Positions 1 through 20,224 of a stretch of DNA of 64,000 nucleotides are shown in pieces. The notes under the pieces are model-generated. The model was not told the origin of the DNA, searched no databases, and worked only from the letters and a program-made list of their open reading frames with translations. Origin of the DNA: Elsinoe ampelina (lineage: Eukaryota); assembly GCA_010093995.1 (NCBI GenBank), contig ML992507.1, forward strand, positions 1,299,868-1,363,867. The letters run 5' to 3'. How positions within the stretch are numbered: the first letter of the stretch is position 1; every line of letters starts with the position of its first letter. The position numbers and the translations under genes are program-made.

Positions 1-289
1 CTATTAGGTCGTCGTTGTTATTAGAGATAGTTCCTCTAAACTTAACTCTAGTTATATCTACCTTAGAGTTAGATTCTACATCTAAGGCTAACGCCCTACT
101 ATAGCTCTCCTCTAGTACTACCTCTTTATAACGAGGCGGCCTACGCTAGTTATTTACTAAGTAGAGGTAGGTAAAACTAGCTATAGGCTTATCCTCGGGT
201 TCTATAGAGAATAGAGTGTAGTTATTAGGCGAAGGGTCCCTAGAGATAGAGGCGCCGGTATAGATCGAGTTACTAGTGTACTTCTACTT

Positions 290-1054
290 ACAACAATTGT
301 TGTTAAATATGTTAGCCTAGGTACCGTCCTTGTTTAAGGACTTCGGATCGTTAAAATCGTATATGGCCTCCCTAGAGCTTATAAAACTCTTAATTTTGTC
401 GTAAATGTATTTAGTGACTAAGTTAACCTAGGGCCTAGCGCGGTCTACGATCTATTATAGGAGCTTAACGTGTAGCTTATCGACGGACCTATAGTTAATA
501 ATAGTAGGGATATAGATCTTCTTTAGGTCGATATAGCCTTTATATAGCTCGAAAAGGTCTAATTAATTATTGTAGAAGAGTAGGCGCTAGTTAGACTTAA
601 TTATGTCTCTCCTATTAACTTATAAGATATTATAGTTCTAGACCTATATTCCGCCTAGTACATAGACGCCACGGAGGACTAAAACCCTCTAAGTATTGTC
701 CCTCGGGGAGATATAGAAGTAGAGTAGGTCTATGTTTTTATATAACAATCTAAGTACTCTATTCTTAAAGATGTCTAGGTAGACCTTACTATACTAAGTT
801 CTCGAGATTATCTTCTTATATATAAGCTTAATAATTTAGCCAAGGATAAAGTCGCTTATGTTATAGACGCTAGTAGAAGGCATAGCGTTAGGCGTAACTA
901 AGCTTTAGAAGGCGTTATAAACATATTTAACATAGATAATTTAGGTACTACTATTAACGCGAACTATTTCCTCGTACTCTTCTACTAGAGCTAGACTAAT
1001 GTCCGGAGTTTACCTACGTGTAACGGCTATGCTAGTTGCTATAGCTTCGACTAT
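290..1054 (-). pseudogene. Second RIP-degraded ORF of unknown function (probably continues toward position 1)
   Basis: Frame ...TPDISLALVEEYEEIVRVN...DLFELYKGYIDLKKIYIP...EAIYDFNDPKSLNKDG carries only TAA/TAG interruptions. The frame is uncertain below ~290. Confidence 0.55.
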
Positions 1055-1309
1055 AGTAGTTGCAAAAAGAGTTAGAAAGTTAAATTCGTAGGGCTAGTAA
1101 TCGAGCTTAGTTCTTAGGTGTTAGTTAATATTTTTAGTAGATAGGGTAAGTTAGACTATAATTGCCTAGGCAATTCTAGTGTTAATATTAATTCCGTATA
1201 GCTATATATATAGCTACGAATTATGTTAAGTTAATATAGTAGAGTCTTTATTATTACGTCGCGTAATACAAGAGATCTCTATAGTTATTATAGCAATATT
1301 AAACTATAC

Positions 1310-3322
1310 TACCCCCCTCTATAGAGTAGAGCCTAGCTATATAAGTATTATATCTAATCTTATAGAGCTATTCTTAAAGTTGTCTATTTTACAAGGGACG
1401 TACTCTATAGCTAGGAAGGAGTTATAGACAGTGTCGGCGTTATATAGTGTGTCTTTATAAAGTCTAGCTTCTAGTACTACCTTAAACACTATATGTTTAT
1501 TATGTCTACTAATGTTGTTATTCTTAACCTATTCTATCTATCCCTTAATTGTCCTTTCCTCTAAGATATAGCCTTCTAGAGCTAAGAAGACTAAGTAGGT
1601 TTAATAGCCTAACTACTTATTACTAGAGTCGATTCTAAGCTCGGCTAATAGGTCTACTACGCATCGGGATGTTCCTTCTAAGGAGCGTATATTCTTGCGA
1701 GTAACTATAAGCTTCTTCTCTCTTAACTCGTCTATAAGTTCCTCTATCGATACTATTGTCCTAATGTTATTAATGTGCCTCTACTTGCCTAGTCTAATAA
1801 CTCTTGCTACGTTTAGTATGCTTACGTTCTAATCCTCTATTACTATCCTTCTTAGGGCTCTCTCCTTGCCTTCCGCTTACTCCTAGTCGCGTATCTAGTT
1901 AGTAATAAGCTCCGCTGCCGCGTGCCTTTACTAATCGAGAAATTCCGTAGCCTCTTTTAAGGTTAGGAATATTAGGCTAAACTTAATAGTGAGCTAGTAC
2001 ATAAACGTTAATCGTTTAGCATCGAAAGGGATAAGTGTGTCGAAAATAACTAAAGCGGGGATCTTAGGCAATTTAATGTTCTATTCGTCTAAGGCTACCT
2101 AACTAAATAAGGCCTTTATAGTGCTAGTTAACTCTAGCACCTTAAAGACCGTAAGGTACTATATTAGTTCTATTTTAGAGATTAGTATCGAGTTAAGGAA
2201 AAACAAGATATAGGCTAGTAGCTATATAATTAGATATGTTATAGACTTAATAGGCCATTACACCGCAATAGTCTCTAAGGTAGGGAAAGGCGCTTCTAGC
2301 TTTACGTACTATGTTAGAAACTTTAGTAGTTAAATATTAGTCTCTAGGGCGTAGTAGAGAGACCTAAAGTAAGTACGTAGGTCTATCTTAAAGAGGTGTC
2401 GGTCTACTACGTCTATAAAGTGTAGGTCGAAGAACTTAATATAGAGTGTAACGTCCCTGCCTTTATTAGTAACTATATAGTCTACTTTGCCGTAATAGAG
2501 GTAGTAGCCGACTTTATAGTCTAAGTAGCTACTAGTGTAGAATAGTAAAGACACGTCCGTTAGCCCTTCGTAGATCTCTACTAGCTAGGTTATATAATCT
2601 ACTAGCTCCTTTATATAGCTCTCTTTTAGATTAGTTACACGTAAGACTCTCTATAGCTCTATAAAAGCCTTTTACCTTTCGAAAATTGTCTATTAGTCCT
2701 CTGTCGTAGGCCCTGCTTTACTTGTCTTATCTCTAAGGTACTTCCCGATGTCTACTATACCTTTAGGGTTATCTATCCTACTTGCCTCTATTACTACTAT
2801 TACATTAGAAACACCCTAGGCCTCTATAGCTACGATCTAGTCTGCTGTTAATACCTTGCCTTTTACGCGGCATTCGAGTAATGCTAAATAGATTAGCGAA
2901 GTAGATATAGTAGGTAGGTCTAGTAGGCGAAGGAATTTCTAAGCTTTCTTCTAGGTTAGACCTACGTCTCCTAGTACTATAGTAGCTATAGTAGTGTTTT
3001 TAATTCTATCGTTTAGGACGTAGTATATAAAACCCTTAGGGGATTAGATTAATAATAGTGCTTCTTCCGCAGTTAGGGCATATATAACTACGGCATAGAG
3101 GGTAGAGTAATATAGTATATCGTTTTCTATAAGAGCGTTGTATTTGTCTTTAGAGAGTTAGAGAATGTTATACGCGCTCTTCTTAAGCTTCTTATATTTA
3201 TAGCTAGTTAAGGAAAGGTAGTCTCTTAATCGCTTATTCTTAGAGAGGGTAGATAGCTTAGAAGGTGCCTTCTTTTCCTTAGTATAGCCTAGGGAATCTA
3301 GCGAGTAGATATCTGTTGCTAT
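1310..3322 (-). pseudogene. RIP-degraded ~670-codon ORF of unknown function downstream of Gypsy pol
   Basis: One frame traceable from ATA (RIP'd ATG) GCA ACA GAT at 3,322 (ATDIYSLDSLGYTKEKKAP...), through the 2330..2554 ORF, to ~1,310. Interrupted only by TAA/TAG. No family recognised. Confidence 0.65.
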
Positions 3323-3599
3323 AGTTAATAGAGAGCTTAGAGAAGGTAATAATTAGGTAGCGCGTACTATATAAAAAGGCGTAAGTATAGCTAGTAGTGT
3401 TAATGTTAGTATATTTACTATGTTTTAGCTTTAAGGTTAGAGGAGTAGCGCGCTAAGACTACACGTAAAGCTAGCATCTAGGGTCTCTACTATAGTATTT
3501 ACTATAGTATAAAAATTTTACCGATTAAAGAGAAATTTAGTAAGGAGATATAATAATATAGTTATAGCAACAAAGAAAAGTAATTATTAGGTCTGTCTT

Positions 3600-6500
3600 A
3601 TTCCTCTTCTTCCTTTTAGTCCGCCTTTAATTCTTAATCTTTGTCTAGAATAACAAGTGTTATATTTCTCTATTAAATCCTTTATATCCTTTAAATCCTC
3701 CTTGTTATACTAAGCGTCGTGTTACGCGCTATAACTCTTCTATCGCACTAGATATTGCGTAATAGCCTTACCTTTCTTCTATAGTATCCTCTTGTTAATA
3801 AGTATATCGATTTTATACGTGTCTCTCTTATCTATAGCATCGTCTATAGTTTATACCGGTCCTAGTTCTACTACTGTCCTACTAAAGGGGTCCTTATCCT
3901 ATAGTACTCTCTCTAACTAGACTACCGACACTATAGGGTAGATATTCTTTAGCTAAACTAAGTCTCCGATGTCTACTAATTTGTAAGCTAACTCTCTAAT
4001 ACGTTTCTCTACCTTAAATAGTCTAGCTTGTCGAGGTCTAAGCTTCCCTAGTAGTACTATTAACTAGTATCTATGTCTAAGACGAAGGAAAACCTTGTCG
4101 CCCGGCTTAAAGGTAATTTGCTTATACTTAGCATCGTATTATACTTTTATCTAACGTTAGGTAAAGCGTAGTAAGTCTTTAGTAGCTTCTCTTACTTTAG
4201 CTCGAAGCTATACCTAATCTTCCTAGTTAAGCTCTAATATAAGCTAGACTAAGTTAGTATAGAGCTAGAATCCGTAAAGGTACTTATTAGGTAACACTTT
4301 AGTTAAGGAGTTATAGGCGTTATTATAGAATACTATAACGTAGAGAATAATCTCCTCCTAGTCGCCGTCGGGGTTCTCGGCTATAAACATTCGAAAGGTA
4401 AGTTCTATAGTCTAATTAGTTCGTTCTAACTGCCTGTCTGTTTATAGATAGTAGGCTATAGATGTTAGTATTCGTGTGTGTAGTTTCTTAAACACTGTAG
4501 TCTAGAATTCCGATAGGAACTTAGGATCCCTATCCGATATAAACCTTACTAGTATGTCCTATCTAGTATAGAAGATTATATCTAACTATGTATATACCTA
4601 GTCGCCCGTAGTCTAGTCCTTTCTGCCTAGTACTAGAAGTACACGTTTAGAGGCCTTATTAGTTGTAGATATAACTAAATCCTTATTCGACTTTGTTATA
4701 GGTAGATCCGTTATAAAGTCCGCTACTATAGTATAGAACGGGACATTCGGGGTAACTACTAGACGAAGCTTACTATAGAGCTTATAGCATATAGTCTAAT
4801 TAAGGCAGCAGATCTTATAATATTTAATGTACTTTTTTAGTTTCTTAGTTAGTCCGCGGATGTAGATACCGGTCCTAAGTCGTTCTATAGTTTAGTAGAA
4901 ACCCGAATAGAACTCGTTATTATAGGCTATTTTAAACACTTTCTAGACTATAGCTTAAGGAATGTAGAGGTAGTCGAAACAGTTGCTATTATTATAGAAG
5001 TAGAGGAGACTATCCTTAAGAAAGAAAGGTAAGTTAAGAGGTATATTATCTTTTATATCTTTACTATTTATAACCTTAATTCTAATTTCCTTTACTTTTT
5101 TAGCTTTCTCTAGTATAGGTCTATACTTCTCGTTATTATCTAGTGCCTTACGGAGCTCGTCCTTAAAGGGATCCTTTATTTAGACTATAGTATAGTTGTA
5201 CGAAAATAGGTCGAGAGTGTTAGGCTTGTTTTTGTCTACTCTAGAGTAATCTCCTATTAAGCGACTTAGAGCGTCGAGTACCTTATATATATATCTAGGG
5301 CAATAGCAAACGTCGAGATTAAATTAGGAAAGGTATTATAAAGCTCTAACTAGTCGTAAGTTAAGTTTGTTAACGCTAGTTATAGTTGTTAGGCTTAACT
5401 ACTTTAATAGTGTAACTATAGTATAATAGTTAGTAAAAACAATAAGTAGTATAGTACTTACTTTAGCTATATAGCAGATTCGACATAAGAGCTAGACTAC
5501 GCCTATAACCTCTAGCTTAGTAGGCTAGTAGTTCTTCTTAGCCGTATTTAGCCCTTTACTAAGGAAAGTAATTACCTTAAGATTAGAGTTAGAGAAGCAA
5601 GTAGCCTTACTATCTTCTATAACTAGATCGGGGTTACTCTTAACTATGTAGACTATAGCACTATAGCTCTACTAGCGGCTACTATCGACGTCGGCGTAGA
5701 GTTAGTAGTTAGGGTCGTAGTAGTAAAGGAAACTAGAGTCCTTAAATTGCTCGCGAAGAGTATTATAGGTAGTAAGAGCATCGGTACGAACTTTGTCTAT
5801 AAGTGCGGCTATAATTAGGGTTTTATAGCTATAGGCTTTACGTGCCTCTCCTTTATTACTAGGTAAGGCCTTAAGTAAGGCGGTTTTTAAAGCCTATAGT
5901 AGTTCTACAATCTAGGCGTAGTATAGAATTATCGTGCGTATATATCCGGTGAGTCCTAGATAGTACTCTAGATCCTTTAGAGTCTCTAGAAAGGCGACAT
6001 CTAGAAGTGCTTAGACGCGGTCCTTATAGATAGCTAAGCCTAAGCCGGAGACCTTATAACCTAGAATAGTTATAGAGGAATAGCCTAGGAAGGTTTTACT
6101 AGGGCTAAGGCTAACGTCTATATCGTCTAGTAGCTTAAATAACTACTCTAGGTAGTTTAGATAGTTATCTAGAGTAGTAAAGCGCGCGAAGATATCGTTA
6201 ATATAGGCTTATATAAACTCGCGGAGGCTGCGAAGAATAGTATCTAAGCGCCTTTAGACGTATTATACGCTATTATAGTAGCCTATAGAGGCAATATTAA
6301 GGTGTTCTTATCCTCGAGAGATATTAACGATAAGCTTATAATAGTCTTCTTCCGCGACTAGCTATTAGTAGAAGAAAGAGATAGCGTCTATAATACTAAT
6401 ATATAAAGCTCTACTTAACTAGGAGATAATATTAGACTAGAGCGGTACGGGGTATAAGTCCTTCTCTAATATCTTATTAAGGCCGCGGATGTCTATTACT

Positions 6501-9500
6501 ATACGGCCCTTATAGATAGGCTCTCTATTATTACCCGTAACGTTTTTCTATACTATAAAGACTAGAAAGCTAAATAGAGTATACTATATAGACTAACTAG
6601 CCTTACCCTCTCTATAAAGCTTGTCTATAGTATTGTTAATAATCTTCTAGGCTGGTTTTAAGGCTAGATATGCTTTAGTTAGTAGTGTCTCCTTCTCCTA
6701 TCTTAGCTTTAGAGGTATCTTTATATATAGCTCTTTCGGTACCTTAACTACTATACCTTTATCGACCTAGAGGCGTTTATACTTTATTACTAAGGCCGAA
6801 AGCTCCTTTAAGGCTCGTCCTTCGCTATAAATAGTTACTCCGTTTAATAGTCGAGACTCTAGACCCTCGTAACGGCTAGTATTAATAGGTGTAAATTGTT
6901 CTATAAAACTAAAATCTGTCTTAGAGATTTAATATATACCGTTAAAGTCTATAGAGCTAAGGGTGCCGACTTAAGTGTCCTTAGAGACTACTATAGTAAA
7001 GTCGGTGTTATTACGTATATAGATTGCCTTAAAATCTTAGTCCGTTAGCGTAGTATAGACTAACGCTTTTACTATTAGAGCTATAGGACTAAATTCTACT
7101 CCCTATCTATAGGGAGTAAAAAGGTACATGTTATTAGAAAGAGCGTAGTTAATGTAGATACCGACTATAGCTCCGGTGTAGAGAGGTAGAGCGTATGTCG
7201 TAGTAGCCCGAACTAATATACTTCTTGTAATTTTCTCTCTATTATAGCGTTTAATAGAGATAGGAACATAGTAGTCGAGATAGGCTTTAAAGCGTACACT
7301 CTTGTTATTAAAGTCGATAACTGCGCTATAGTCGCCTATAATATTAGTTGCTAGTAGTATACTAGGTTCGAGCTTATTAGTAATATATAGCTTAACGTCG
7401 AATAGTAACTAGACATCCTCTCTGTTTTAGTAAGCTAGTGCGTATACTATAGTCTTAGTGTACTTAAAGGTCACTACTGTTCCGCTAATGCTATTAATAT
7501 AGATTAGTTGTTTTAAGCTATAGCGTTAGAGTTTATACTTGTCTACTAAGGCACTATCGATTTAGGAGATGCCTACGCCTATGTCGAACACTCTAAGCTA
7601 AGGCACATCTAATATAGAGAGGGTTATTACTATTTCTATAAAGCGCTACTTACGGTAGTTATATCCTTAGGTGTCGGCTTTCTTAAGAGTATAGAGCAAC
7701 ACGGGGATATTCTAAGGTATAGCTACGAAGGACTCGGTTATTACTATAGCTAGTGCCTCTAAAGCTAGCTTGTCTAGGACTAGCTCTAGGTGCTTATACC
7801 TAATGTAGGCGTAAAGCTCGTTACCGGATCTAGCTACGAAGGTACAAGTCTTATAGGGGTATAGTAGCTTAGAGAGCGTTAGCGAGGTCTTAATAGTTTC
7901 GGGTATTACGTTATAGTTAACCTTTGTCGCTACTCTAACACCGAGTAGCTCCTCTAAGCTTAGTGCCTCGAGCCTTAGTAGCTCTCGGTTAAGAGTACTA
8001 ATTCCTGCTACTATAAAGAAACTACTAACTCTATCTAGCTCCTAAGGCTTAGGTGCTATATTCTTATAGTCGGTCTTAGCTATAGTCTCTAGTAGTGCCT
8101 CTCTATTGTACCTAGCTCTTTTATCCTAGTTACACTAGTTATTATTAGGTTAGTATAAACTATAGTCGTTACTATAGTAACTCTAGTAAGCGTTTAGGTC
8201 GTTATATAGATAAGGATTAAAGTAGAGGTCGAAAGGTTCTTCTAGTAGGGCGTAGAATTTAGAACTACTATAGTACGCGCTAACTCTCGGTAGGTAGTTC
8301 TAGTAGCTAGCGCTCGGCGGGAAATATAGACGAGAGCTATAGAGGATACATCTCTAACTATACTAGCGATTATTATAGTTAGGGCTATTATAGTTCTAGT
8401 TACTAAATAGCCTATTATTAGGATAGCGATTGTTCTAGTTCTAATTCTAGCCTTAGTTCGGGTTAGAGGTGTTTTACTAGCTAGTCTTTACTCTGCCTTA
8501 TAGTAGTGCTAGGCTTAAGACATTTCCGCGGTTAGCGTTATTAGAGTTCGGCATAAATAGTTACTATACTGTCTCTATAGTTCTCTAGTATATCGAGCTA
8601 GTTACATTTATGTTTAGTGTAAAGCCGTAGGGAAGGTAGAGGTATAGGTAAGAAGGGTAGTACGCTATTAGAGTAGGTATAGCTAGAAAGTAGTTCTACT
8701 ATAAGTTAGCTCTAGGCAGAGGTCCTCTAGTAGTAGGCCTTCTTTACTCCTATAGCCTACGATTGTTCGTAGTGCTAGATTGCTCTAAAGATCGCTATCT
8801 ACCTTTAGTGTTTATAGTGTAGCTTAGCTTACTAAAGTTATAACGGAGAGTATTAACCTTAGCCTCTATATACTTAATGAACTAGTTAATAGTAGTCGTG
8901 TCGTTAGGCTTATCGATATAGAGCTAGAAGCTATCCTTAAGACGGAACTAGGCTTACATTAGCTAGCTATAGGTGTCTTTAATACCTGCGTCTCGATAGT
9001 AGTAGACGATAGTAAGAACGTAGTTTTATAGAGTACAATTCTCCGCTAGACTATACTTGTCAAATTTTTCGTTGTTTAATAATCTCTAAGCCTCGGAGTT
9101 ACTAGTCTTAAATTGCTTAATTATAGCATTCGCTAACCTCTTAATACTATAACCTCTACGGAGATATTTATAGTTACTATTAGTAAGCTCTTCTATCTAC
9201 TACGAACTAGCGTCTCCCTTAAAGTAGAGATTTAGATTATAGCGGACGTCCTAGGATAAATAGGTGTAAGTAAAGTCCTTTACAGAATTAAGAAACAAGT
9301 GTATATTCTTAATAGCCTAAAATTAACCTACCGCTATAGTTTTCTAGTTCTTAGCGGCGTTTATATTAGGCTAAAAGTAACCGATAGTAGCTAGGCTAGC
9401 GTAGTATTTTTGCTTCTTCTATCTATACTCTATCTTATTATTGTTAGTGTAGGAGTCTAATACTAAATTTGTATCTTTGTATCTTAAAGGGCACTTATGC

Positions 9501-11383
9501 CTACGTCGATGCCTATATCGACAGCTATAGTATTTATCTTTATAGTAGCGGGAGCTATCTAATCCGGCTAAGCTAAAAGGGCTAGAGCTATTATCGCTAG
9601 ATAAGGGTAAGAGTCGGCATATCTAGTATTACCTCGAGCGTCCTATGTCCTCTTAAGCCTAATTGTAGCGTTAGGACTTCTAAGGTAGTTACGGAACTTG
9701 TTACTTAGTCTAGCGCTTATAGCCGGTTATAGGGCGATTTAGTTGTTCCTAGGCTCTCTAGTCCTAGGCTCTATAGTCCTAGGTACTAAGGTTTACCTAT
9801 ACGAGTCGGCGCTTACAATTGTAATTAATAAACTTATTATATTTATCCTTACGAATTTTACTCTCTATAGTTCTTAAATAGTTTAGGAGTTAGTTCTACT
9901 ATGCCTATAACATAGTTACTAGTAGCAGTTCGAGGTGCTTAGGAGATATAACTATTCGGCCGGCGTTATCGGAATAGACGTAGTAGTACCCCTAATAACT
10001 AGGTCTTATATTGCTTAAAGAAGGCTAGTTATAGCCTTATTCTCGATTAAGAGCGTTATCTTCGTTGTTTAGGCTAGCTAAGAGATAGTCGACGTAGATT
10101 GTGTTACTTATATTAGCGAACTTAATAAGCTTTCTGTTTATTATAGAGAGGTCGGGGCCTTTATAATAGCCTTTAAAGGAGCAATAGTGGACCTTTTAAT
10201 AGAAGAAGGTTTCGGGTAATCCCGAAGGATAAAAAATCTACATATCTATAGAAGAAGCTTATAATAACTTAGAACTCTATTCTCTACTAAGATTTGTAGG
10301 CACTAAAGTAGGCAACGGTACTTCTTCTAGTTCTAGTAAGCTAGAGGTTAAGGGGGGAAAGGTCGACGAGATCGATTAAATCCTTGCCTACTATAAGAAT
10401 GTTAGGAGGCTACCTACGCTTAGTAGTGTACCTAGCGAGGCTCTAGTCGGTAGTAACTTCGCTAGTGTCGAAGCTCTAGTTAGTTAAGCTCTAACTAGTA
10501 GTAAATTCGCTAGCGATGTAGCTCTAGTCGGTAGTAACTTTACTTACACCTAATCGCTAGGCTCGGCGTAAGTATCTAATAATCGTAGAGTAGTACTTAA
10601 CTACTAATCTACCTACTCTTACTAACCTAGAATATTATCTGCCCTTATTGCCTCTTCTAACCTTAATAGGGTTTATTTAATAGCTACGTATAGAGCCTTA
10701 GTAAACTTACGAATTACTACCGAGAGAGAGTTCGTAGTTAAAAGCTAGTTCTTAGAATAGCCGTCTAGTAGCTAGTTATATAGCGCCGGCTTCTTGCCCT
10801 TAGCCTTTAATAAAGGCTAGGTCGTAGAACTTGCCGCTATTCGATTAACAACTTATATAATAGCTAGATTCTTCTTAGTAAGGTACTACTCTAATACCTT
10901 AGAAGCGTATACACTAAGGTAGAATGCTATCTCGATAATATATAGGTTAAATTCGGCTCCTACGTCTAGAGCTACCTAGACGCGTTCCGGAGTAACGAGA
11001 TACTATAAAATTGTACTTGTCGTTCCCGCTATTAATACTAGTTTACTAGCGAGCCGTTCTAAAGGCTCGCGCGTATTAGTATAGCTTAGGTAGATCCTTA
11101 GTAGGCTAATGTAAGTTAAGCCTAGCCTTAGTCTACACTATAGTAAGTAATTATAAGGTTATAACTAGTCGCTTAACGAGTGCTCTAGGTTACAGTGTAA
11201 TAGAGTTATTAAGTCTTAATGCTTAGCTTAGCTATATTGTAAGCAATTGTTAACTATAGCTAGTATGCCGCCTCGGTGTTAGCTTACATAAGGAAATCGT
11301 AGAGTATTACTACCTAGAGGTATTAGAATTAAGGAATCTAAACGATACTACTACTTGTTAAGCACTTAGCTTAGAAGCTTATA
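3600..11383 (-). mobile_element. Ty3/Gypsy chromoviral LTR retrotransposon, RIP-inactivated (gag-pol)
   Basis: Minus-strand translations (*=RIP stop): gag FKGDASS**IEEL (~9.2 kb); protease FDIGVGIS*ID (~7,580); RT KGRIVIDIRGLNK..DLYPVP (~6,490), ISIIDAISFFY**, EFI*AYINDIF (YIDD, ~6,200); RNase H LYADVDSS and FLSKGLNTAKKNY*PTKLE (~5,530); integrase ISDRDPKFLSEF* (~4,530) and TDRQLERTN*T; chromodomain QYLVR*KSYSA*HDA*Y (~3,740). The PR-RT-RH-INT-CHD order is Gypsy. Confidence 0.93.
11196..11383 (-). repeat. Candidate 5' LTR of the minus-strand Gypsy element
   Basis: Lies just upstream of the RIP'd gag start (~11,032). Bounded on + by TGTAA... and ...GCTTATA (RIP form of TTACA). No partner LTR seen in the window, so boundaries are unconfirmed. 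Confidence 0.35.
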
Positions 11384-14363
11384 ACTATAGTAAGGTATTA
11401 TTGTCAGGAAGACTACTAGGCTATCTCTAGTAGATAGAGGCTTACTAAGCCTTAGTATTAGCTATAGTACCTACTATAGTACCTGCTATGGCCTTAACTA
11501 TAGTATCCGCTGTAGTGTCTACTATAGTATCTACTATAACACTTATTAGCTTAATACTTATAATAAAACGCTATAATAATTATCTCTATTATAGTTTTAA
11601 ACTTATTAAACTTATCCTTAATCTTAGGAGAGCTACTAGGAGAAGTATTAGAAGGTATATTAGCTATAGAAGTATCTAGAGAGGTTACTATAGTAAAATA
11701 AGATATAAAAGTTAAACTTAAGAGCGTAGAAATAAAAGGGCAGTAGAGATAAGAAGAAAGAAAGTTAATAGAAGAAGAAGAATAATAAAGGAGAGTAATA
11801 TAGCCTTCTACTATATATAAAGTAATAATAAGATAGCTAGGGTAAAATATAAAATATAAAATATAAGGTTTTTAAGAATTATAGTATACTAAATTAGTAT
11901 TGTATTATTACGCTAGATTATTATATACTTATTATTAGTACTCTATAATATCTAGATTCCTCTTCTTCTAAGCGTTTAAACAAATCTAATATTATATGCC
12001 TTACTATTATAAATAATATTATAATAAGCAAGTATTCTATATACTATATATTTCTAATTTACTAATTTTATATTTCTATTATAATATTATATTCTTATTG
12101 TTAGCTATGCTATTACTAGCTACTAAATTATTACGTATTTCTCTTTTTATTATATATTTCTCTTCTTCTACTTCTTTTACTTCTTCTCTTTTTACTTATC
12201 TTTCTTTATACTACTACTATATCTACCTCGTTACTTTCTATGCCTTTTACTACCTTACCCTTACTACTATAAGATTACTTTATATTATAAGCACCTCCTA
12301 AGACTCTATCCTTAGTAGTAATAGTAACTATGCCTCCTAAGAGAGGTACTATAGTACTAACCTATAGTTATAGTTATAAGAGTAAGTTATCTAGTAGACC
12401 TAAGGCTTCTACTACTAAGTAACCTTATAAGACAACTATTACTCCTAGAAAGAAGAATAAGTTTAAGGCTAGTAGTATAATTATTATAATTAATTATTAT
12501 GTTATATTACTAATACTATATAGCTATTACTCTCCGAGAGATTTATCGCTACTAGAAGTTAACTAAATTTCTTTACTATAAGCTTCCCTTTAGCTACCTT
12601 ATTTGTAAGATTATTAGAGGCTATATTCGTTAAGATAAAAGCTTTTATATCTAATCTAAAGCTCTTAAAGTATTTTAGGAAGCAATAGAGACATTTATTG
12701 TTAGGTATATAGAAGGTATTTATTATTTGAATTTAATACTATTATAGATACTAATATTCTTAGACATAAACCTTAATTATATTTATACTAAGTAAGTTAC
12801 TATTAACTAGAAAGATTTATAGCTTACTTGTTACTATTATATAAAGTTTAATATATATAACTAAGACAATTAGACAGTTTATAGTAAGGATAATTATTCT
12901 ATAAAGGTAGATAAGTAAGTAAGGCATAGGCTATAAGAGTAGATAGGAGGTACTAGCAAGATTAGCATAATTAATAAACGTAATTATAACCTTTAACTTT
13001 TAAATTTTAATTTTTAAATCTTAAGTTCTTAAGATATATATCTACTTCTTAACTCTTAGGCACCTATAGGTACTATTAGGTAGTATTATAAGTAACACTA
13101 TAACTAACTATATACCTAAGGCTAAGTAACACTACCTAAGGCTTAGAGAGTTATAGTTGCTAAGCTTTAGGTACTAGTATCGCTATAGGTTAGGTTATAG
13201 GTAGTAATTCTAGTACCTAACTTAACCTAAAAACTACTCTATTTAAAATAGATATTATAACGTTGTTTAGAACGCTAAAGACACTAGTCTTAGATAGAGA
13301 GTCTATCTTTATAAGCAAATTCTAGAGTGCGCTATACTAGTGCTAGAAGGCGTAACGTAAGCTTAGTACTAGTTTCTATCTATAGATAGATAGCTAAACT
13401 AAAAGGTAAAACTAGACGCTAGAGTAGTACCTACGCTACTTTATCGACTATTACTAGACAGACTAGCTATACTAGGTTAAGTAGGCGTAATTCGTGTATA
13501 ATAATACGTATTAAGTATTACTATATACTACGCTAGTATAGTTCTTATTTACGTAGGAGATACGCCTACCTAACAATATTAAGGCGCTAGCGCTACCTAG
13601 CTATACGCTAGTATATAACCTATTAGTCGATAACTAAGTATAATCTATTACTAAAACGCATATAGAGCTCGCCTAACACCTATATAAAGCATAGAAAGAC
13701 TAAGCGCTAGTCTATAATAGAGGTTAATAAGTAAAAGTCTTCTATAATAGCGATAAGGTTATACTTAGCACTAAGAACCTTCGTAGCGCTAGACCTAGCT
13801 ATAAGCTATTAGCTAAGTATATTAGCCTATTTATAATTATATAACAAATTAGTATATAGGCGTATAAGCTACACTTACTAGACAAAATAAAGCTAATCTA
13901 TAACGTCTTTAATATTACACTACTAGAGCTATATAGGCGTAGTAAGGGTATATACCTACTACCCCTAGAGGTAGAAGAGTAAGAAGAATATATTATTAAA
14001 TATATCTTTAGTAAGAGCTATACTAGCACCCTAAAGGCGCTATACTACCTAGTAAAGTAGTAGGGTTACCCTATAGAAGAAAGTATATAGGAGCTAGTAA
14101 AAAACCTTATAAACGCTAAGGAATTACTATACAAATACGAGGTAGCTTAGTATAAGTATAGTACTAGCTAAACACTCTAGATATACTTAGGATTAATAAG
14201 TTAAAGGTATAAATTTTAAAGTAAAGAGTACCTAGGCGTAGCGCTAGATTAGCTTAGAGTATTATTAGCTTACGTAGAGAGAACGCTAGCGTAGTAAAAA
14301 CTATAGAATTATACTAAAGCGAAGGAGGTATAGTATAGGCGTAGCGCTCTAGCCCCCCCTACC

Positions 14364-15234
14364 TTAACTATCTATATTATCTACCTTAGTCTTATCCTTA
14401 TTATTCTCCTTAATACTATTAATATGCCTAGTTAGCGCCCTTATAGCGTTGTTAATTACCTACGTAGTAGTAGCTTACTTGTTCTTAGTAACTACCTATA
14501 AAAAAGTTAGCGTAGCTTAGGCGTTATAAGGGCGTACTTCTAGACTTATATAATAGGCTAAAGCTTTAAGTATAAAGCTAGTATTACTAATTATACCTAG
14601 GCGTAGCACCTTTACTAGCTACTTAGTGTCGACTTTAGGGGTAGAGAGTATAGCGATAGTACTATTATAGCGTAAAGAAGTTATACTATTACTATTACTC
14701 TTATTAACTACCTTGCTCTTACTCTTAGCGTTAGACTTGCTCTATATATACTTAGCACTAGCCTTCTTACGCACATAGTTAGTATAGGTAGTAATTCGGC
14801 ACTTTAGGAGAATAATGTCCTTCTTAGGAGTAGTAGCGTCGTTATAGAGTAGCATATATATAGTAAAGTATTTATTCTAGAGCTTCTTAGTAGTAGCTTA
14901 ATTCTTAGAGTCGAGCTTAGTAGGCTACTAAGGTTAGTATAAAGTAAGCGTAGTATAGGCGTAGAGTATACCTAGTAGTAGTGTTTATTACTATAACTAT
15001 AACAATTATAGTAGGTAGCCTTAGCCTTAGTAATCTAGTAGAGAGGATCCTTAATAGAGAGTATACTATCTTTAAGCTAAAGGTGCTTATCGATAGTAAT
15101 AGCGTAGCGTAAGTATAGTATAGAGTACTAGTTCTAGTTAGTAAAATCGCTCTTATAAGGTCTATAAAAGGTTAGCGCCGGCGTAGCATAAGTACTATAT
15201 ATAATACTTACTCCTTAGGAACTTTAGGGGCTAT
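14364..15234 (-). pseudogene. Four-exon antisense gene inside the second retroelement (RIP-mutated)
   Basis: Three short fungal-type introns with GT donor, CTAAC branch and TAG acceptor: 15,162-15,211, ~14,925-14,971 and 14,496-14,537. Spliced frame (M)APKVPKEPYKSDF... is maintained and ends in a probable acidic tail. Confidence 0.7.
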
Positions 15235-15874
15235 AGTTATTAAAGTATATAAGCGTATAGGAGGTAAGCTAGTATAGAGCTAGGATAATAAAGGGAAAAA
15301 AAATTACTACGTAGGTACTATACTAGGTTAGTAAACAAATAACTAAATAGATAAGCCCGATAGCTAGATCTATAGTAGCATAGGCTTAGTATATATACTA
15401 AGCCTCCCCTACTAGCCCTTAGGCTAGTAAGACCTAGTCTATACTATATAGCACCTAAAATAGATTACTAGTATAGTATTAGACCTACGTAAGTATAGAG
15501 CTAGCGTTAAGTAGAATACTTATATAAAGGAAGTATTATAAAGGAGAAAAGAAGAAAAGAAGAAGAAGAGAAAAATATATATCTAGCTCTAAGCTAAGAC
15601 TAATCCGGAGAATAATAGGTAGTAGTATATAATAATAAGTAAATTCTTATATATAAAGATAACAACGTAAGAGCGCTATATTCTATATATAAAGATTATA
15701 CTATTATTACTATATCTAGTATACGAAGAATAGTATAGGCTACTATAGGCGCGCTATATATGTAAAGAGTATACTATACCTAAGAGGCGCTAGCGAGACG
15801 CTCTTTCCTAGTTTTCTCCTATACTAGGTTTTCTAGGTTTCATTAAGGCTCGTAGGTATAAGGGTATACCCCTT

Positions 15875-16088
15875 AAAGGGGAAGAATAATTATAAGGACT
15901 AACGTAGTAAGTAAACTATACTAGCTTACCCTAGAGATACTATTCTCTATAGAAGAATAAAACACTCCTTACCTATAGAATAGATAGAGTAGAGATTAGT
16001 CTTATAATAATTAAGAGTATACTAGTATAACACCTATTCTACTCCTATACACTTGTCTTCCTAGCTCTAATATTCTACCTTCGTTATA
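15875..16088 (+). repeat. Polypurine tract plus candidate 3' LTR (~198 bp)
   Basis: AAAGGGGAAGAATAA at 15,875-15,889 is followed by TATAAGGA (RIP'd TGTAAGGA) at 15,891. The segment ends in CGTTATA (RIP'd CGTTACA) at 16,088. Confidence 0.6.
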
Positions 16089-17449
16089 ATAAGCTAGATT
16101 AGACTATTAATTAGATAGTGCTCTTTATGCCTATTAACCTAGTAAAGATACTTATAGTTAGAGCACTAGTTACTAACGTACTACTAGTGCTTAAAAGAAG
16201 ACTCTTAATTACTTATTATAGATAATAAATTTAACTACTAGCTTATAGTTATACTCTACTAACTACTCTAGCTAATATTAAGCTCTTTAATCTTACCTCT
16301 TAGTACAAAGGTAGATATAGTAGATATTATCTCTAGCTATAGAGAAAGGCTTACTAGTATAGTAAGCCTTAGCCTTATACTTTATAAAGCTAGTAGAGGC
16401 TAAGGAGGTACTTATAAAGTTACTAATAGAGTTATTAGCTACTTTAGCTTTAAGAAGGTATACTATAAATCTATATTAAGCTTATTATAGCCTTCTTCTA
16501 ACTAGCGCTCTAGATTAAGTACTAGCCTATTAATATCTAATTACTTATCTACTATAAGCTTATAGCTCTAGTTCTTCCTTAATTTCATATATAAGGCTAC
16601 TAAGCTTATATCCTCTAGCTTTAGAGAGTACTCTACTATCTCTTTAGCCTTAAGCTTAGCCTATATAAGTAATTAACTATATAATAATTTAGCTAGCTCT
16701 TTATATACCTTTCTATTATAGTACTTACTCTTACTAATAGTAATACCTAACTATACCTCTACCTTACGCTACTTAATATCTACTACTAAAGGTACTACCT
16801 CTACCTATACTAAGGTAGAAGTAACCTCCTCTACCTCTATTAACTAGCGTACTCTTAACTTACTTAGTGTTAGTAAAGTAGTTATACACTAGCTAAAGTA
16901 TATAGTATTATAGTTAAGTAATTATATAGCTTAACTAGCAAGATTAGAAAGGCTATTTATATTATAAGGTATATAAGGATAGTTAATAGTACTAGCTATA
17001 GACAAGACTTATAAGTAGTTAGGGTTAATAAAGAGGTATAAATAGCTTCTTAAAGAAGAAGGTAATAGTGTTACTAGCCTCCTTATACTAAGTTAAAGAG
17101 TTATACTAGAGTAGCCTTAAGGCTAAAGAGTCTTAAAGTAGTTGTTAGTAAGGTATACTATAGAGTATACCTTTATATAAAGCTTAAATTAGTAGATATA
17201 GAGATAATTAACTAATTATAGTGTATAGTTCTTTAGCTTTATATACAAATTTATAGCAGCGACAAGTTATTTAAGCTCTATTAATCTATGACCTTCACCG
17301 CCTATTTAACAGCCAATTTTTGGTAGTGTAGTCGCAAATCCGGTCGCCAAGGCTGGGGTGGCCGGCTTGAATCCGAAACAGCTGTATGAGGTCAAATAAA
17401 CTTTCAATCGCTATGCTCGATTACAGGATGGTATCTTGAATCATCATCA

Positions 17450-18904
17450 TCACCTCCCAGAAGTATTACTTTGACTTTGCGGATTATTCCGCCGCCTGAT
17501 CCGCTCCTCTGCCTGTTCGACTATGCGCCGCTTCCTCTCCTTCTCACTCATGGTGGTGCCAGCGGCAGAGCTTGCTTTGCTCTGCTGACTTGTCCTGCTA
17601 TTTGCTCGCGGCCTCCTCGGTGACTTGCGGCTTGCCGGCGAAGACCCTCGTGGCAGGTCAGGAAGCTTCTCTTTCGGCGGAGGTGCGGGTGGAGGATCTG
17701 CGAGCACTTTCTGAGACTCTGTATGCTCAGCTGTCTTCTCCGGCGTGCTCGTCTTCGCCTCTGTGACGGCCGTAGCTGGTATCTTCTCTCGTTTCCGGCT
17801 ACTTGGTCGAATGCTCTTCTGTGATTGCCGGGATCTCGGCCTGCGCGGACGGGGAGATCGAAGCGAGGCAGGCTTGGAGACTGCCTTTTGGGTTGGACTA
17901 CTGCTGGGACTGCTGCGTGGCGAGATCTTCTTGAGAGGGTCAGGTGATCTACTTGAGACTTGTGTTGAATCGTTACGCTTTGCAATCGCTGCAATAGCCT
18001 GTACAAGGGTCGCAGCATCCTCAAAGTCGGCATCCTCCATTCCTTCTGGTGCAGAGTATACATCACGTATAGTCGCTTTTGCCTTTTCTTTCGCCAACGC
18101 AAAGTCTTTACCGCATTCCCAACTGAATGCACAGGATTCGAATGCGACCGAAAGTCGAAGTGGATCCGAGCCTGGTAGTAGACGCCTCGCAAGTACCGTC
18201 GCTTGAGAGAAGTATGCTGTAGCTGCCGGCACAAAGTTGAGCGGAGGCATAAGAAAGTCGGCACTTGATGGTGGGGATCGCTGAACAGGAGAAGAAACGC
18301 CTATTCCAGGTGGCCGAAGTGGTGTGCCTGGTATAGGCGATTGTATCGTGGGTATCGGTGGTGGTGGATACGGCGGGGGTGAAGTCTGGGCCGGTCCACT
18401 AAATGCGTATGGATTCGTGACATATGAAGCGTCAGAGGTCATTGATGGTATCGTTTCTCGTAGCACGGCTTGTCGTGCTCGTGTATCCGTTGATGGTCGA
18501 TCCGTGGTCGTGTTCGTCTTACCATTAGGAGATGTCTTGGGAGGCGTGAGTTGCGAAATGGGTGGATGATTATGGAATAGACAAAAGACATGGTAGAATG
18601 ATGCTCGTAGTTTTGCTGCCATGACTCTGCAGCGAGGTGACTGAGATCCATTCTGGCAATAAGGAAGGATCATGACTTCCGTTATCGCCAAACCTTCTCT
18701 TGACAGCCATATGATTTGGTGGTACAGAGCAACAGATTTTGTGGTGTCCAAACGACGAAGCTTCCTGGCTCGGTATAATTTCCGAGACAAGATGACTGAT
18801 AGACCCAGGATTTGATAGAATGCCGAAGACAGTAAAGGGTTTGTGCGTCCGGCATCTTTTGCGATCTGACACAAGATCTTCTGGTCAATGTCTGATGTTG
18901 CCAT
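17450..18904 (-). CDS. Divergent fungal 14-3-3-domain protein with low-complexity S/P/R-rich tail
   Basis: 484-aa ORF. LLPGSDPLRLSVAFESCAFSWEC resembles the 14-3-3 helix motif [21 protein letters not shown]. Confidence 0.8.
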   Translation of the reverse strand: MATSDIDQKILCQIAKDAGRTNPLLSSAFYQILGLSVILSRKLYRARKLRRLDTTKSVALYHQIIWLSREGLAITEVMILPYCQNGSQSPRCRVMAAKLRASFYHVFCLFHNHPPISQLTPPKTSPNGKTNTTTDRPSTDTRARQAVLRETIPSMTSDASYVTNPYAFSGPAQTSPPPYPPPPIPTIQSPIPGTPLRPPGIGVSSPVQRSPPSSADFLMPPLNFVPAATAYFSQATVLARRLLPGSDPLRLSVAFESCAFSWECGKDFALAKEKAKATIRDVYSAPEGMEDADFEDAATLVQAIAAIAKRNDSTQVSSRSPDPLKKISPRSSPSSSPTQKAVSKPASLRSPRPRRPRSRQSQKSIRPSSRKREKIPATAVTEAKTSTPEKTAEHTESQKVLADPPPAPPPKEKLPDLPRGSSPASRKSPRRPRANSRTSQQSKASSAAGTTMSEKERKRRIVEQAEERIRRRNNPQSQSNTSGR

Positions 18905-20224
18905 GTGGGTTGTCCAGTAGAGCCTGACACTGTTGCCCTACTGGCACCTGTCGCCTCACCAATTACGCGCAAGCAAGTCCTGATCTCTGGTCATGGAGTG
19001 TCTCCCTCACTCTTGCAGTGTTGTCGCTTCTCTTACTTCTTGGTAGATAGTCCTCTGGAAGTGAGTAGCGAGGAACGAATTCGTTTGCCGGAAGGATCTG
19101 AGTTGATCACATTGTTGTCGCTGCGGTCAAGTATGCTGAGTCGTAAAGATTGCCTGTAGCTGTCGTTTTTCTGAAAGGCGTTGCTCGGAGCTCGTACTAT
19201 CGTCGGATGCAGATTGATTGAAAGCAGCTCCAGATCAATCGCTGACAATTGATTGTGTCGTGAATAATTCGTGATGAATCGCAACTTCGCTCAATGGTGC
19301 TACAGAATGGAAGACTTGCTGCGCTATTCAATCAATTCGTAAAGATCATAAGAAAATCGTTCGCTCGGTGACGGGCTCCAGCATCTCAGAGCTCAGCACG
19401 TGGTATTGAGCAGCAGAAGGAAAAGAGCTGCAAATGCGCGAAATGAAGGTCTGTGGACCTGCATGGAAAGATGTAATACTTCCTCAAGCTCGGCCAGAGG
19501 CTTATGAGCTGTAGTACCCACAGTAGATTGCCTGTGCGGTGTCGAGTGTTTAGCGACAAAATGGCCAACGCACCGGCACTGTGTTTCCCACTTGTCCCCA
19601 GCCACCCGCGGAAAAAGGGTCTGTCCTCCCGGTCTGACGTCGATACACGATTGTATGAGTTGTCAGTGGTAACTTGGACATTGAATTGCGGTTCTGTGCC
19701 GATGAGTTGGGCTTCTTCAGCCACCGCGGATGGGTTTGTGAGGTAGAAGAGCAGGAACTGTCGTCACACGAACGGTGAGCAGCAGCAGCACAGCCAGCGG
19801 TTCACGCCCAACCAAGGAACCATTGGATTTGCTTCTTTTGGACATTGCCAGCACATTGTGCTATAACCATTACTGAATATCTTGTATCTGCAACATGTCG
19901 ATATCGCAATAAACTATACATGCTCCGGAGCCGCTGATGTCCATCCCATGCTGTTGACACCGAGCAGACGCAGGTACAGACATCCAAGGAGAACGAGACC
20001 GATCAACCAGCATGCATGATTGGGGCTCCCCACATCTCCGGCCCGTGGACGCCATGGCTGAAAATGGCTTGCTTGTTCTCCCAAAAATACAAGGGCATGT
20101 TTGCACCTTTTGGGAGCAAGTGAAGTAGCGGTGAAGAGGTCATCTCTGATTGGCTCGAGATCACGTGGTCGGGCACTGCTTGGGTCCAGCTTCAATTTCC
20201 AATTTCCAATTTCCAATTCCTCCA

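Follow-up and report, generated by a model that had tools for sequence, protein, structure and literature searches.

The window analysed in this work, i.e., the whole stretch of 64,000 nucleotides of Elsinoe ampelina DNA counted from its first letter, opens with 17.4 kb in which the GC content ranges between 24 and 38% per kb, versus approximately 50-60% elsewhere. The RIP indices of this block (TA/AT of 2.14 and (CA+TG)/(AC+GT) of 0.23) compare with values of 0.55 and 1.27 outside it, and those of the segment under study, positions 14364-15234, are 2.53 and 0.15, respectively. These first 17.4 kb are a RIP-destroyed block of a dothideomycete fungus, which the closest named relatives of a flanking gene place in or near the Elsinoaceae, and for the minus strand of the segment a first-pass annotation had proposed a spliced, Cys-rich accessory gene running antisense to the retroelement in which it lies.

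Genomic context of the segment

The RIP block contains the 3' part of a plus-strand chromovirus, element A, constituted by integrase, SH3 domain, chromodomain, a 1.7-kb spacer, a polypurine tract (PPT) and an LTR of approximately 200 bp. The remnant of the integrase core (13260..13751, plus strand) is heavily RIP-mutated and was recognised by eye from peptides in its translation; it gave no Pfam match, and displayed weak tblastx similarity to the integrase of a second chromovirus of the block, element B, at 13275-13337 and 13365-13445 (E 0.034). The integrase C-terminal domain SH3_Tf2-1 follows at 13752..13934 of the plus strand (PF24626, E 8.4e-9 and 1.6e-10; 41.4 bits, against a cut-off of 30), and a weak match to Chromo lies in the same frame at 13992..14141 (PF00385, plus strand, E 0.037; 14.4 bits, under the cut-off of 25.1). 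Further downstream, the polypurine tract AAAGGGGAAGAA was read from the sequence at 15876..15887 (plus strand), directly before the peak in contig depth that corresponds to the 3' LTR (15888..16090, plus strand, approximately 200 bp). This peak comes from X1, a DNA run of the same organism that comprises 32 Mb of contigs, and loose contig ends occur at 16089/16090 both in X1 and in X3, a run labelled as a second organism.

With an integrase followed by a chromodomain, a PPT and an LTR, element A displays the 3' arrangement of a chromovirus, the Chromo match being weak and below its cut-off. The element context given by the first-pass annotation was thereby confirmed by the SH3_Tf2-1 and weak Chromo matches on the plus strand, the purine tract and an LTR-like depth peak at 15901-16140. 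A complete chromovirus would also have protease, RT and RNase H further upstream on that strand, together with a matching 5' LTR, and these were not recovered for this copy: Pfam recognised none of the three domains on the plus strand of 4001-13800, RIP-tolerant alignment located no 5' LTR within the window (score of 49, versus a shuffle mean of 51), and self-comparison of the RIP block, plain or purine/pyrimidine-collapsed, revealed neither a second copy of the element A family nor a 5' LTR. On its 5' side, this copy is therefore either truncated or too heavily mutated. A word-based protein search with the pol tail of element A returned no match, and a pattern search of viral contigs for related loci yielded 43 matches, none of them a relative. 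RIP-degenerate DNA patterns were also run against metagenome contigs; two scans gave 0 matches and then 3 loci were obtained, which share nothing else with element A and were attributed to chance.

The most AT-rich part of the block, 11000-13000 (GC 24-30%), displays a self-reverse-complement similarity of 61% over 11329-12633, and may be the ruined RT/RNase H region of element A. On the 3' side, the stretch between the antisense remnant and the PPT (15235..15875) is a spacer without 3-base periodicity, which harbors a purine-rich microsatellite at 15540-15574 (TRF) and is repeated, according to the X1 depth, at the same order as the rest of element A. Part of it, 15342-15752, is similar to 11972-12395 in reverse complement when the alignment tolerates transitions (score of 109, versus a null of at most 65.5).

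Element B is better preserved and occupies 3659-9300 of the minus strand, with all its domains in one frame: RVP_2 at 7286-7624 (E 0.016), RVT_1 at 6050-6505 (E 2e-5), RT_RNaseH_2 at ~5470-5590, Integrase_H2C2 at ~4800-4960, SH3_Tf2-1 at 3977-4102 and Chromo at 3659-3817 (E 7e-4), all on the minus strand and all from Pfam. The two elements belong to different families; weak integrase similarity is all that was seen between them.

The segment is a regular part of a repeated element

In the X1 data, 2,303 contig pieces align to 12901-16500 at 80% identity or more. Their summed depth, which is a sum over contigs and not a copy count, is 4,075-5,688 upstream (12901-13260), 12,946-19,506 in the integrase/chromodomain tail (eight bins, 13261-14220), 6,239-15,484 across the segment (eight bins, 14341-15300) and 6,949-15,396 in the spacer up to the PPT (15301-15900). 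It then rises to 48,998 and 24,456 in the two LTR bins (15901-16020 and 16021-16140, respectively), and drops to 483-783 past 16140. This profile is that of one repeated unit ending in an LTR of approximately 200 bp located after the purine tract at 15876-15887. In X3, 28 of the 30 bins are covered, including all eight bins of the segment. None of the runs that contain the stretch is recorded as RNA, and two runs presumed to be RNA (X5 and X8) contributed no aligned piece, a result without bearing on expression. The X1 pieces differ at 553 places in all, and of those tallied by the kind of change, 300 of 306 are transitions, as RIP produces.

A segment lacking from other copies of the element would have the appearance of a one-off nested host fragment. 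The other copies do not lack it: the X1 depth of the segment is near that of the pol tail, X3 covers it as well, and the segment belongs to the regular make-up of a Ty3/Gypsy family of high copy number, which supports the first-pass annotation on this point. One contig of X3 joins 14268 to 14398, omitting 129 nt just downstream of the antisense stop, which points to a variable length, between copies or species, of the spacer that separates pol from the antisense ORF.

Coding periodicity and strand preference

The TA phases in 14301-14900 (22, 73 and 30) give a chi-square of 36.1, the top value among 164 windows scanned in the RIP block, whose median is 5.7. The TA-phased stretch extends from ~14,340 to ~15,230, and its phase switches from 1 to 0/2 at ~14,930-14,950. 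Consistent with this, sequence identity is higher at all lags divisible by 3 (0.319, versus 0.258), with no dominant tandem period, and the adjoining spacer is flat. Tandem repeats were considered as the source of the periodicity and discarded, as TRF shows only arrays of 6-12 nt and the autocorrelation involves all multiples of 3. The coding signal of the 14364-15234 segment exceeds chance.

Since stop counts, RNY pattern and TA-class shares did not separate the strands, two codon models were used: model 1, built with the codon frequencies of 14 long host ORFs of the window after simulated RIP, and model 2, trained on the real RIP-mutated pol of element B. For 14364-14927 both models place frame -f2, the very frame of the first-pass reading, at the top, with a strand margin of 0.141 per codon in model 1 (the largest of 175 windows) and of 0.137 over the best plus frame in model 2, these strand calls being drawn from composition, as the minus strand is A-rich here and RIP erases most other evidence. 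For 14972-15160 both models again favour the minus strand, with -f0 scoring at least as high as -f1.

As for the controls, model 1 recovers the Pfam-defined frame of the element B pol in all 25 windows (margins of 0.03-0.09), both models recover the SH3/chromodomain frame of element A, and model 2 also recovers -f1 in the gag region of element B. One of the two controls in element A failed: neither model puts its integrase core (13101-13750) in the expected frame, possibly as a result of frameshifts, which are likely in this stretch; the TA phase changes twice there. Taken together, the antisense coding claimed by the first-pass annotation is supported as to strand, and as to its own frame in 14364-14927; the frame upstream is ambiguous.

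The main antisense coding remnant accordingly spans 14364..14927 of the minus strand (188 codons including the terminal stop), and comprises exons 3 and 4 of the first reading together with the candidate intron at 14496-14537 that had been placed between them. Read from 14924 to 14364, it contains 187 codons with 8 internal stops. The upstream antisense remnant (14972..15171, minus strand) is uncertain in frame, and corresponds either to exon 2 of the first reading in -f1 or to a stop-free -f0 frame of 84 codons at 14917-15171.

Intron-like stretches and the joined frame

The first-pass annotation joined the antisense frame across three introns, and the three intron-like stretches are indeed present on the minus strand: candidate intron 1 at 15211-15162 (50 nt, GTAAGT..GCTAAC..TAG), candidate intron 2 at 14971-14928 (44 nt, GTATAC..ACTAAC..TAG) and candidate intron 3 at 14537-14496 (42 nt, GTACGC..GCTAAC..TAG), the latter being in frame. 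Their removal leaves exons 15234-15212, 15161-14972, 14927-14538 and 14495-14364, i.e., 735 nt or 245 codons, which agrees with the approximately 240 codons announced and includes the peptides quoted; the resulting frame has 12 internal stops and starts at an ATA, and is in this sense not a single open one. The first exon, of 23 nt, carries this ATA start and lies with candidate intron 1 in 15162..15234 of the minus strand; the sequence was verified, and the exon is too short for any frame test.

Introns of filamentous ascomycetes are of the GT..AG type, with a 5' site GTRNGT and a branch site CTRAY shortly before the 3' end. All three candidates possess GT..AG and CTAAC; the 5' site is perfect in one of the three (GTAAGT), GTACGC keeps the G at +5, and GTATAC does not. 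Within the RIP block, the minus strand contains 3.06 occurrences per kb of the loose motif GTA..CTAAC..YAG, versus 0.06 per kb outside. Distinct motif acceptors amount to 5 per 870 nt in the segment, against a mean of 1.15, and at least 5 are found in 8 of 372 windows. The only other locus with 5-6 acceptors per 870 nt is 7866-9170 of the minus strand, which corresponds to the sense-strand gag/protease of element B, where introns cannot persist, as splicing would have removed them from the genomic RNA, and comparable clusters thus arise without introns. By themselves, the intron-like motifs are no more than what chance would give.

Among the three candidates only that of 44 nt changes the frame, and the TA phase switches there. 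An alternative model uses a 67-nt stretch (GTAATA..CTAAC..TAG, 14991-14925) to join -f0 to -f2 in frame; it comprises 233 codons with 6 internal stops, versus 12, reaches an equal codon score and removes the Tyr-rich exon. Given this alternative and the equal motif cluster in the gag of element B, the particular three-intron structure was not upheld. What can be delimited is a frame-change zone at 14925..14991 of the minus strand, holding both the 44-nt (14928-14971) and the 67-nt (14925-14991) candidates, either of which restores a frame. No frame-changing indel near 14,950 was present among the X1 places listed (40 of the 553 that differ), and the frame change is family-wide rather than copy-specific. 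That an intron in antisense orientation would survive retrotransposition is, in principle, a sound argument: such an intron is not removed from the genomic RNA and hence is passed on to new copies. The antisense copy itself is dead, with 6-12 stops depending on the model, no ATG and no present function.

The zinc-cluster reading and the nature of the product

From a Cys-rich pattern obtained by reverting RIP, the first-pass annotation had suggested a zinc-cluster DNA-binding module, an idea that found no support. Fungal Zn2Cys6 domains follow the spacing C-x2-C-x6-C-x5-12-C-x2-C-x6-8-C, and this six-Cys spacing fails even when all Tyr residues are read as Cys: in the exon-2 peptide of the first reading, YLRY is followed at +7 by His rather than Tyr/Cys, and more than 20 further residues separate it from the next Y/C cluster. 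That peptide contains one real Cys only, and the 'CxxC...' pattern emerges only when Tyr is hypothetically reverted to Cys, in a frame to which the codon models give no preference. In the exon-2 frame, TAN codons constitute 25%, and Tyr accounts for 6.4-9.2% of the residues in each frame of the block versus 1.8% outside. The likeness to Zn2Cys6 (PF00172) is thus limited to a Tyr run derivable from Cys by RIP (TGY to TAY); the differences are the missing Pfam match, the unmet spacing, and the placement of the Tyr-rich peptide in one of two equally scoring frames.

Homology searches were negative. Pfam gave nothing at E <= 10 for either exon frame, and nothing at E <= 0.01 in the three minus frames of 13901-16000. 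A phmmer search against 1.84 billion representatives produced 0 matches at E <= 0.001, a weak negative given the RIP damage and the low complexity of the query, and a PDB search with the antisense frames likewise gave 0 matches, which is again a weak negative in RIP-damaged sequence. In tblastx against the rest of the RIP block, nothing was obtained for the antisense segment. As the SH3 domain is still detectable in the same copy (E 1.6e-10), a conserved fold would probably have been visible; a lineage-specific low-complexity protein would not.

An acidic tail before RIP, also put forward in the first-pass annotation, is possible, as a T precedes many of the Lys/Asn codons, whose origin could be Glu/Asp, and this pattern is equally well explained by C-to-T changes in the preceding codon. 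The role of anti-silencing factor that had been proposed for the antisense product is speculation.

Antisense ORFs between pol and the 3' LTR in other elements

Antisense ORFs located between pol and the 3' LTR (aORF-3R) are described in PMC7264820 (section 5) for Grande1 of maize, RIRE2, Wallabi and Gran3 of rice, Retand of Silene and PvRetro13 of bean, with their function stated there as unknown. A fungal case is also described, namely brtn, an antisense ORF between pol and the 3' LTR of Boty in Botrytis and Sclerotinia (PMC7264820, PMC8365987, PMC4227169); two supplementary files of PMC8365987 contain no mention of it. One literature search listed no paper that mentions Elsinoe, which does not show its absence from print.

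The segment shares the features of this group in several respects. It is located within a Ty3/Gypsy element, after pol ends and before the PPT/3' LTR (14364-15234, between Chromo at 13992-14141 and the PPT at 15876-15887), and occurs in most copies of the family as judged by X1 summed contig depth, as well as in X3. With regard to an open frame opposite gag-pol, 6-12 stops interrupt it in this RIP-mutated copy, and the periodicity and the two codon models favour a minus-strand ancestral ORF.

Compared with the brtn of Boty, as far as the citing texts describe it, the likeness is one of element type, position and orientation: in both cases a fungal chromodomain Ty3/Gypsy element carries an extra ORF between pol and the 3' LTR, opposite to gag-pol. 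The host belongs to Dothideomycetes here and to Leotiomycetes in the case of Boty, and the present copy is RIP-dead, its ORF being deduced from statistics only. The plant aORF-3R, as portrayed in the same part of PMC7264820, share with the segment the position, the orientation, the presence in most copies of the family and an unknown function; they differ in that the plant elements are of the Tat/Retand type, whereas here the element is a fungal chromovirus, and no sequence similarity was detected. The phmmer search against 1.84 billion representatives returned no similarity of the segment to brtn or to plant aORF-3R, a weak negative in which brtn itself stood outside direct comparison. On balance, the segment is probably a further antisense ORF of the aORF-3R kind, a layout already known from plant and fungal elements.

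The antisense product of Grande is a nuclear protein with its own promoter. Antisense genes of retroelements that bear introns are exemplified by HBZ of HTLV-1 and by the reporter cassettes with an antisense intron that serve to assay Ty1 and L1 retrotransposition. As in these systems, an antisense intron stays in the genomic RNA and is inherited by new copies; the difference is that the introns of the segment are candidates only, and their positions are not unique.

Interpretation and alternative explanations

We give an even chance to the proposal that ~14,364-15,170 is the fossil of an additional ORF antisense to gag-pol, of the aORF-3R kind; the broader statement that the element bears an antisense coding region, which takes in a functionless captured fragment, is fairly probable. 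If the former holds, an ORF of ~190-250 codons would have been transcribed in active copies from its own promoter, presumably within the 15,235-15,875 spacer, and would change frame once near 14,950, most simply via one short intron, which would persist because the genomic RNA of the element is the other strand. The predicted product would be polar and of low complexity, perhaps acidic and rich in Ser before RIP, and may have acted in the nucleus on the expression or integration of the element itself. The fullest version of the proposal is rather unlikely; it states that a chromovirus family common to at least two dothideomycete data sets harbors a conserved, intron-bearing antisense accessory gene unrelated to described proteins and kept spliceable opposite the genomic RNA, whose pre-RIP product would be an acidic, low-complexity (possibly Cys/His-bearing) nuclear regulator of the element.

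Several of the above observations would be expected if the segment were a non-coding 3' spacer, with its frames, intron-like motifs and Tyr-rich peptides being by-products of the RIP composition (TA, GTA, CTAAC, TAG): the excess of the loose intron motif on the minus strand inside the block, the equally dense cluster (up to 6 per 870 nt) in the gag/protease of element B, the high Tyr content of all block frames, and the fact that at least two different 'clean' spliced models fit. RIP alone, however, creates no 3-base phase, and the segment is the most periodic of the 164 windows, at all multiples of 3; its strand margin is also the widest among 175 windows, in a model that scores 25 out of 25 on real RIP-mutated pol. 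We therefore regard a non-coding spacer as unlikely. An improbable explanation, to a similar degree, is that of a passenger fossil, i.e., a piece of a host gene or mobile element captured in reverse by the ancestor of the family and copied along with no role. The lack of homology between the segment and known retroelement proteins, its biased and low-complexity composition, and the finding that no antisense signal follows the chromodomain of element B, located in the same block, would fit with such an origin, the latter also implying that the feature is not general to the chromoviruses of this genome. Against it, the segment is kept at near-full depth in a many-copy family and in the run labelled as a second organism (X3), no terminal direct or inverted repeats surround it (scores of 54 and 42, versus a null maximum of 60), and the phmmer search found no host homologue either.

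The periodic stretch might also derive from coding on the sense strand of element A, where it would either extend pol at its C terminus or form a third sense ORF. Between 14972 and 15230 the plus frame has 8% of TAN codons, which is more ordinary than the 25% in the minus frame of the first reading, and element B displays a sense-strand coding signal for 3.6 kb after its chromodomain. In both models, however, +f2 scores below -f2 by ~0.13-0.15 per codon over 188 codons; moreover, 14150-14300, the would-be link to pol, lacks periodicity, and the plus frame translates into a succession of Leu, Ile, Ser and Thr broken by approximately 11 stops, all of which makes sense-strand coding very unlikely.

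Should the antisense ORF reading be correct, a second fungal family, from another fungal class and in high copy, would carry an antisense ORF, which would indicate that this layout recurs in fungal chromoviruses and would provide a comparison partner for brtn. If the gene were in addition conserved and intron-bearing, it would constitute a second, independent fungal case beside brtn, in which the logic of intron retention would be open to study. From a methodological point of view, a coding fossil and its strand are still detectable in fully RIP-mutated DNA by means of TA phase and a RIP-aware codon model, where homology searches fail; conversely, in DNA of this kind neither intron-like motifs nor patterns that are 'Cys-rich after reversion' can safely be relied upon.

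Other features of the window

At the left edge of the window (1-3650, minus strand), the frame of element B keeps a coding-like signal past its chromodomain, for approximately 1,200 codons and with a margin of 0.087. Neither half of this stretch gave a Pfam match, and 1826-3649 gave no PDB match; it is either a long sense-strand addition to element B or the start of a further element. Past the LTR of element A, the stretch 16100-17400 is strongly 3-periodic (TA phases of 44, 68 and 26 in 16301-16900), with its best codon score on the minus strand (-f1) and no Pfam match; it is ~61% similar to 14548-14778 (E 5e-5), a resemblance that may be compositional only. The border of the RIP block is very sharp: within ~50 bp of its end starts an ORF of 495 codons (17450-18937, minus strand) that encodes a 14-3-3-domain protein, whose closest named relatives come from Sphaceloma murrayae, at 72% identity, and from Elsinoe fawcettii, at 81% across 67% of the query.
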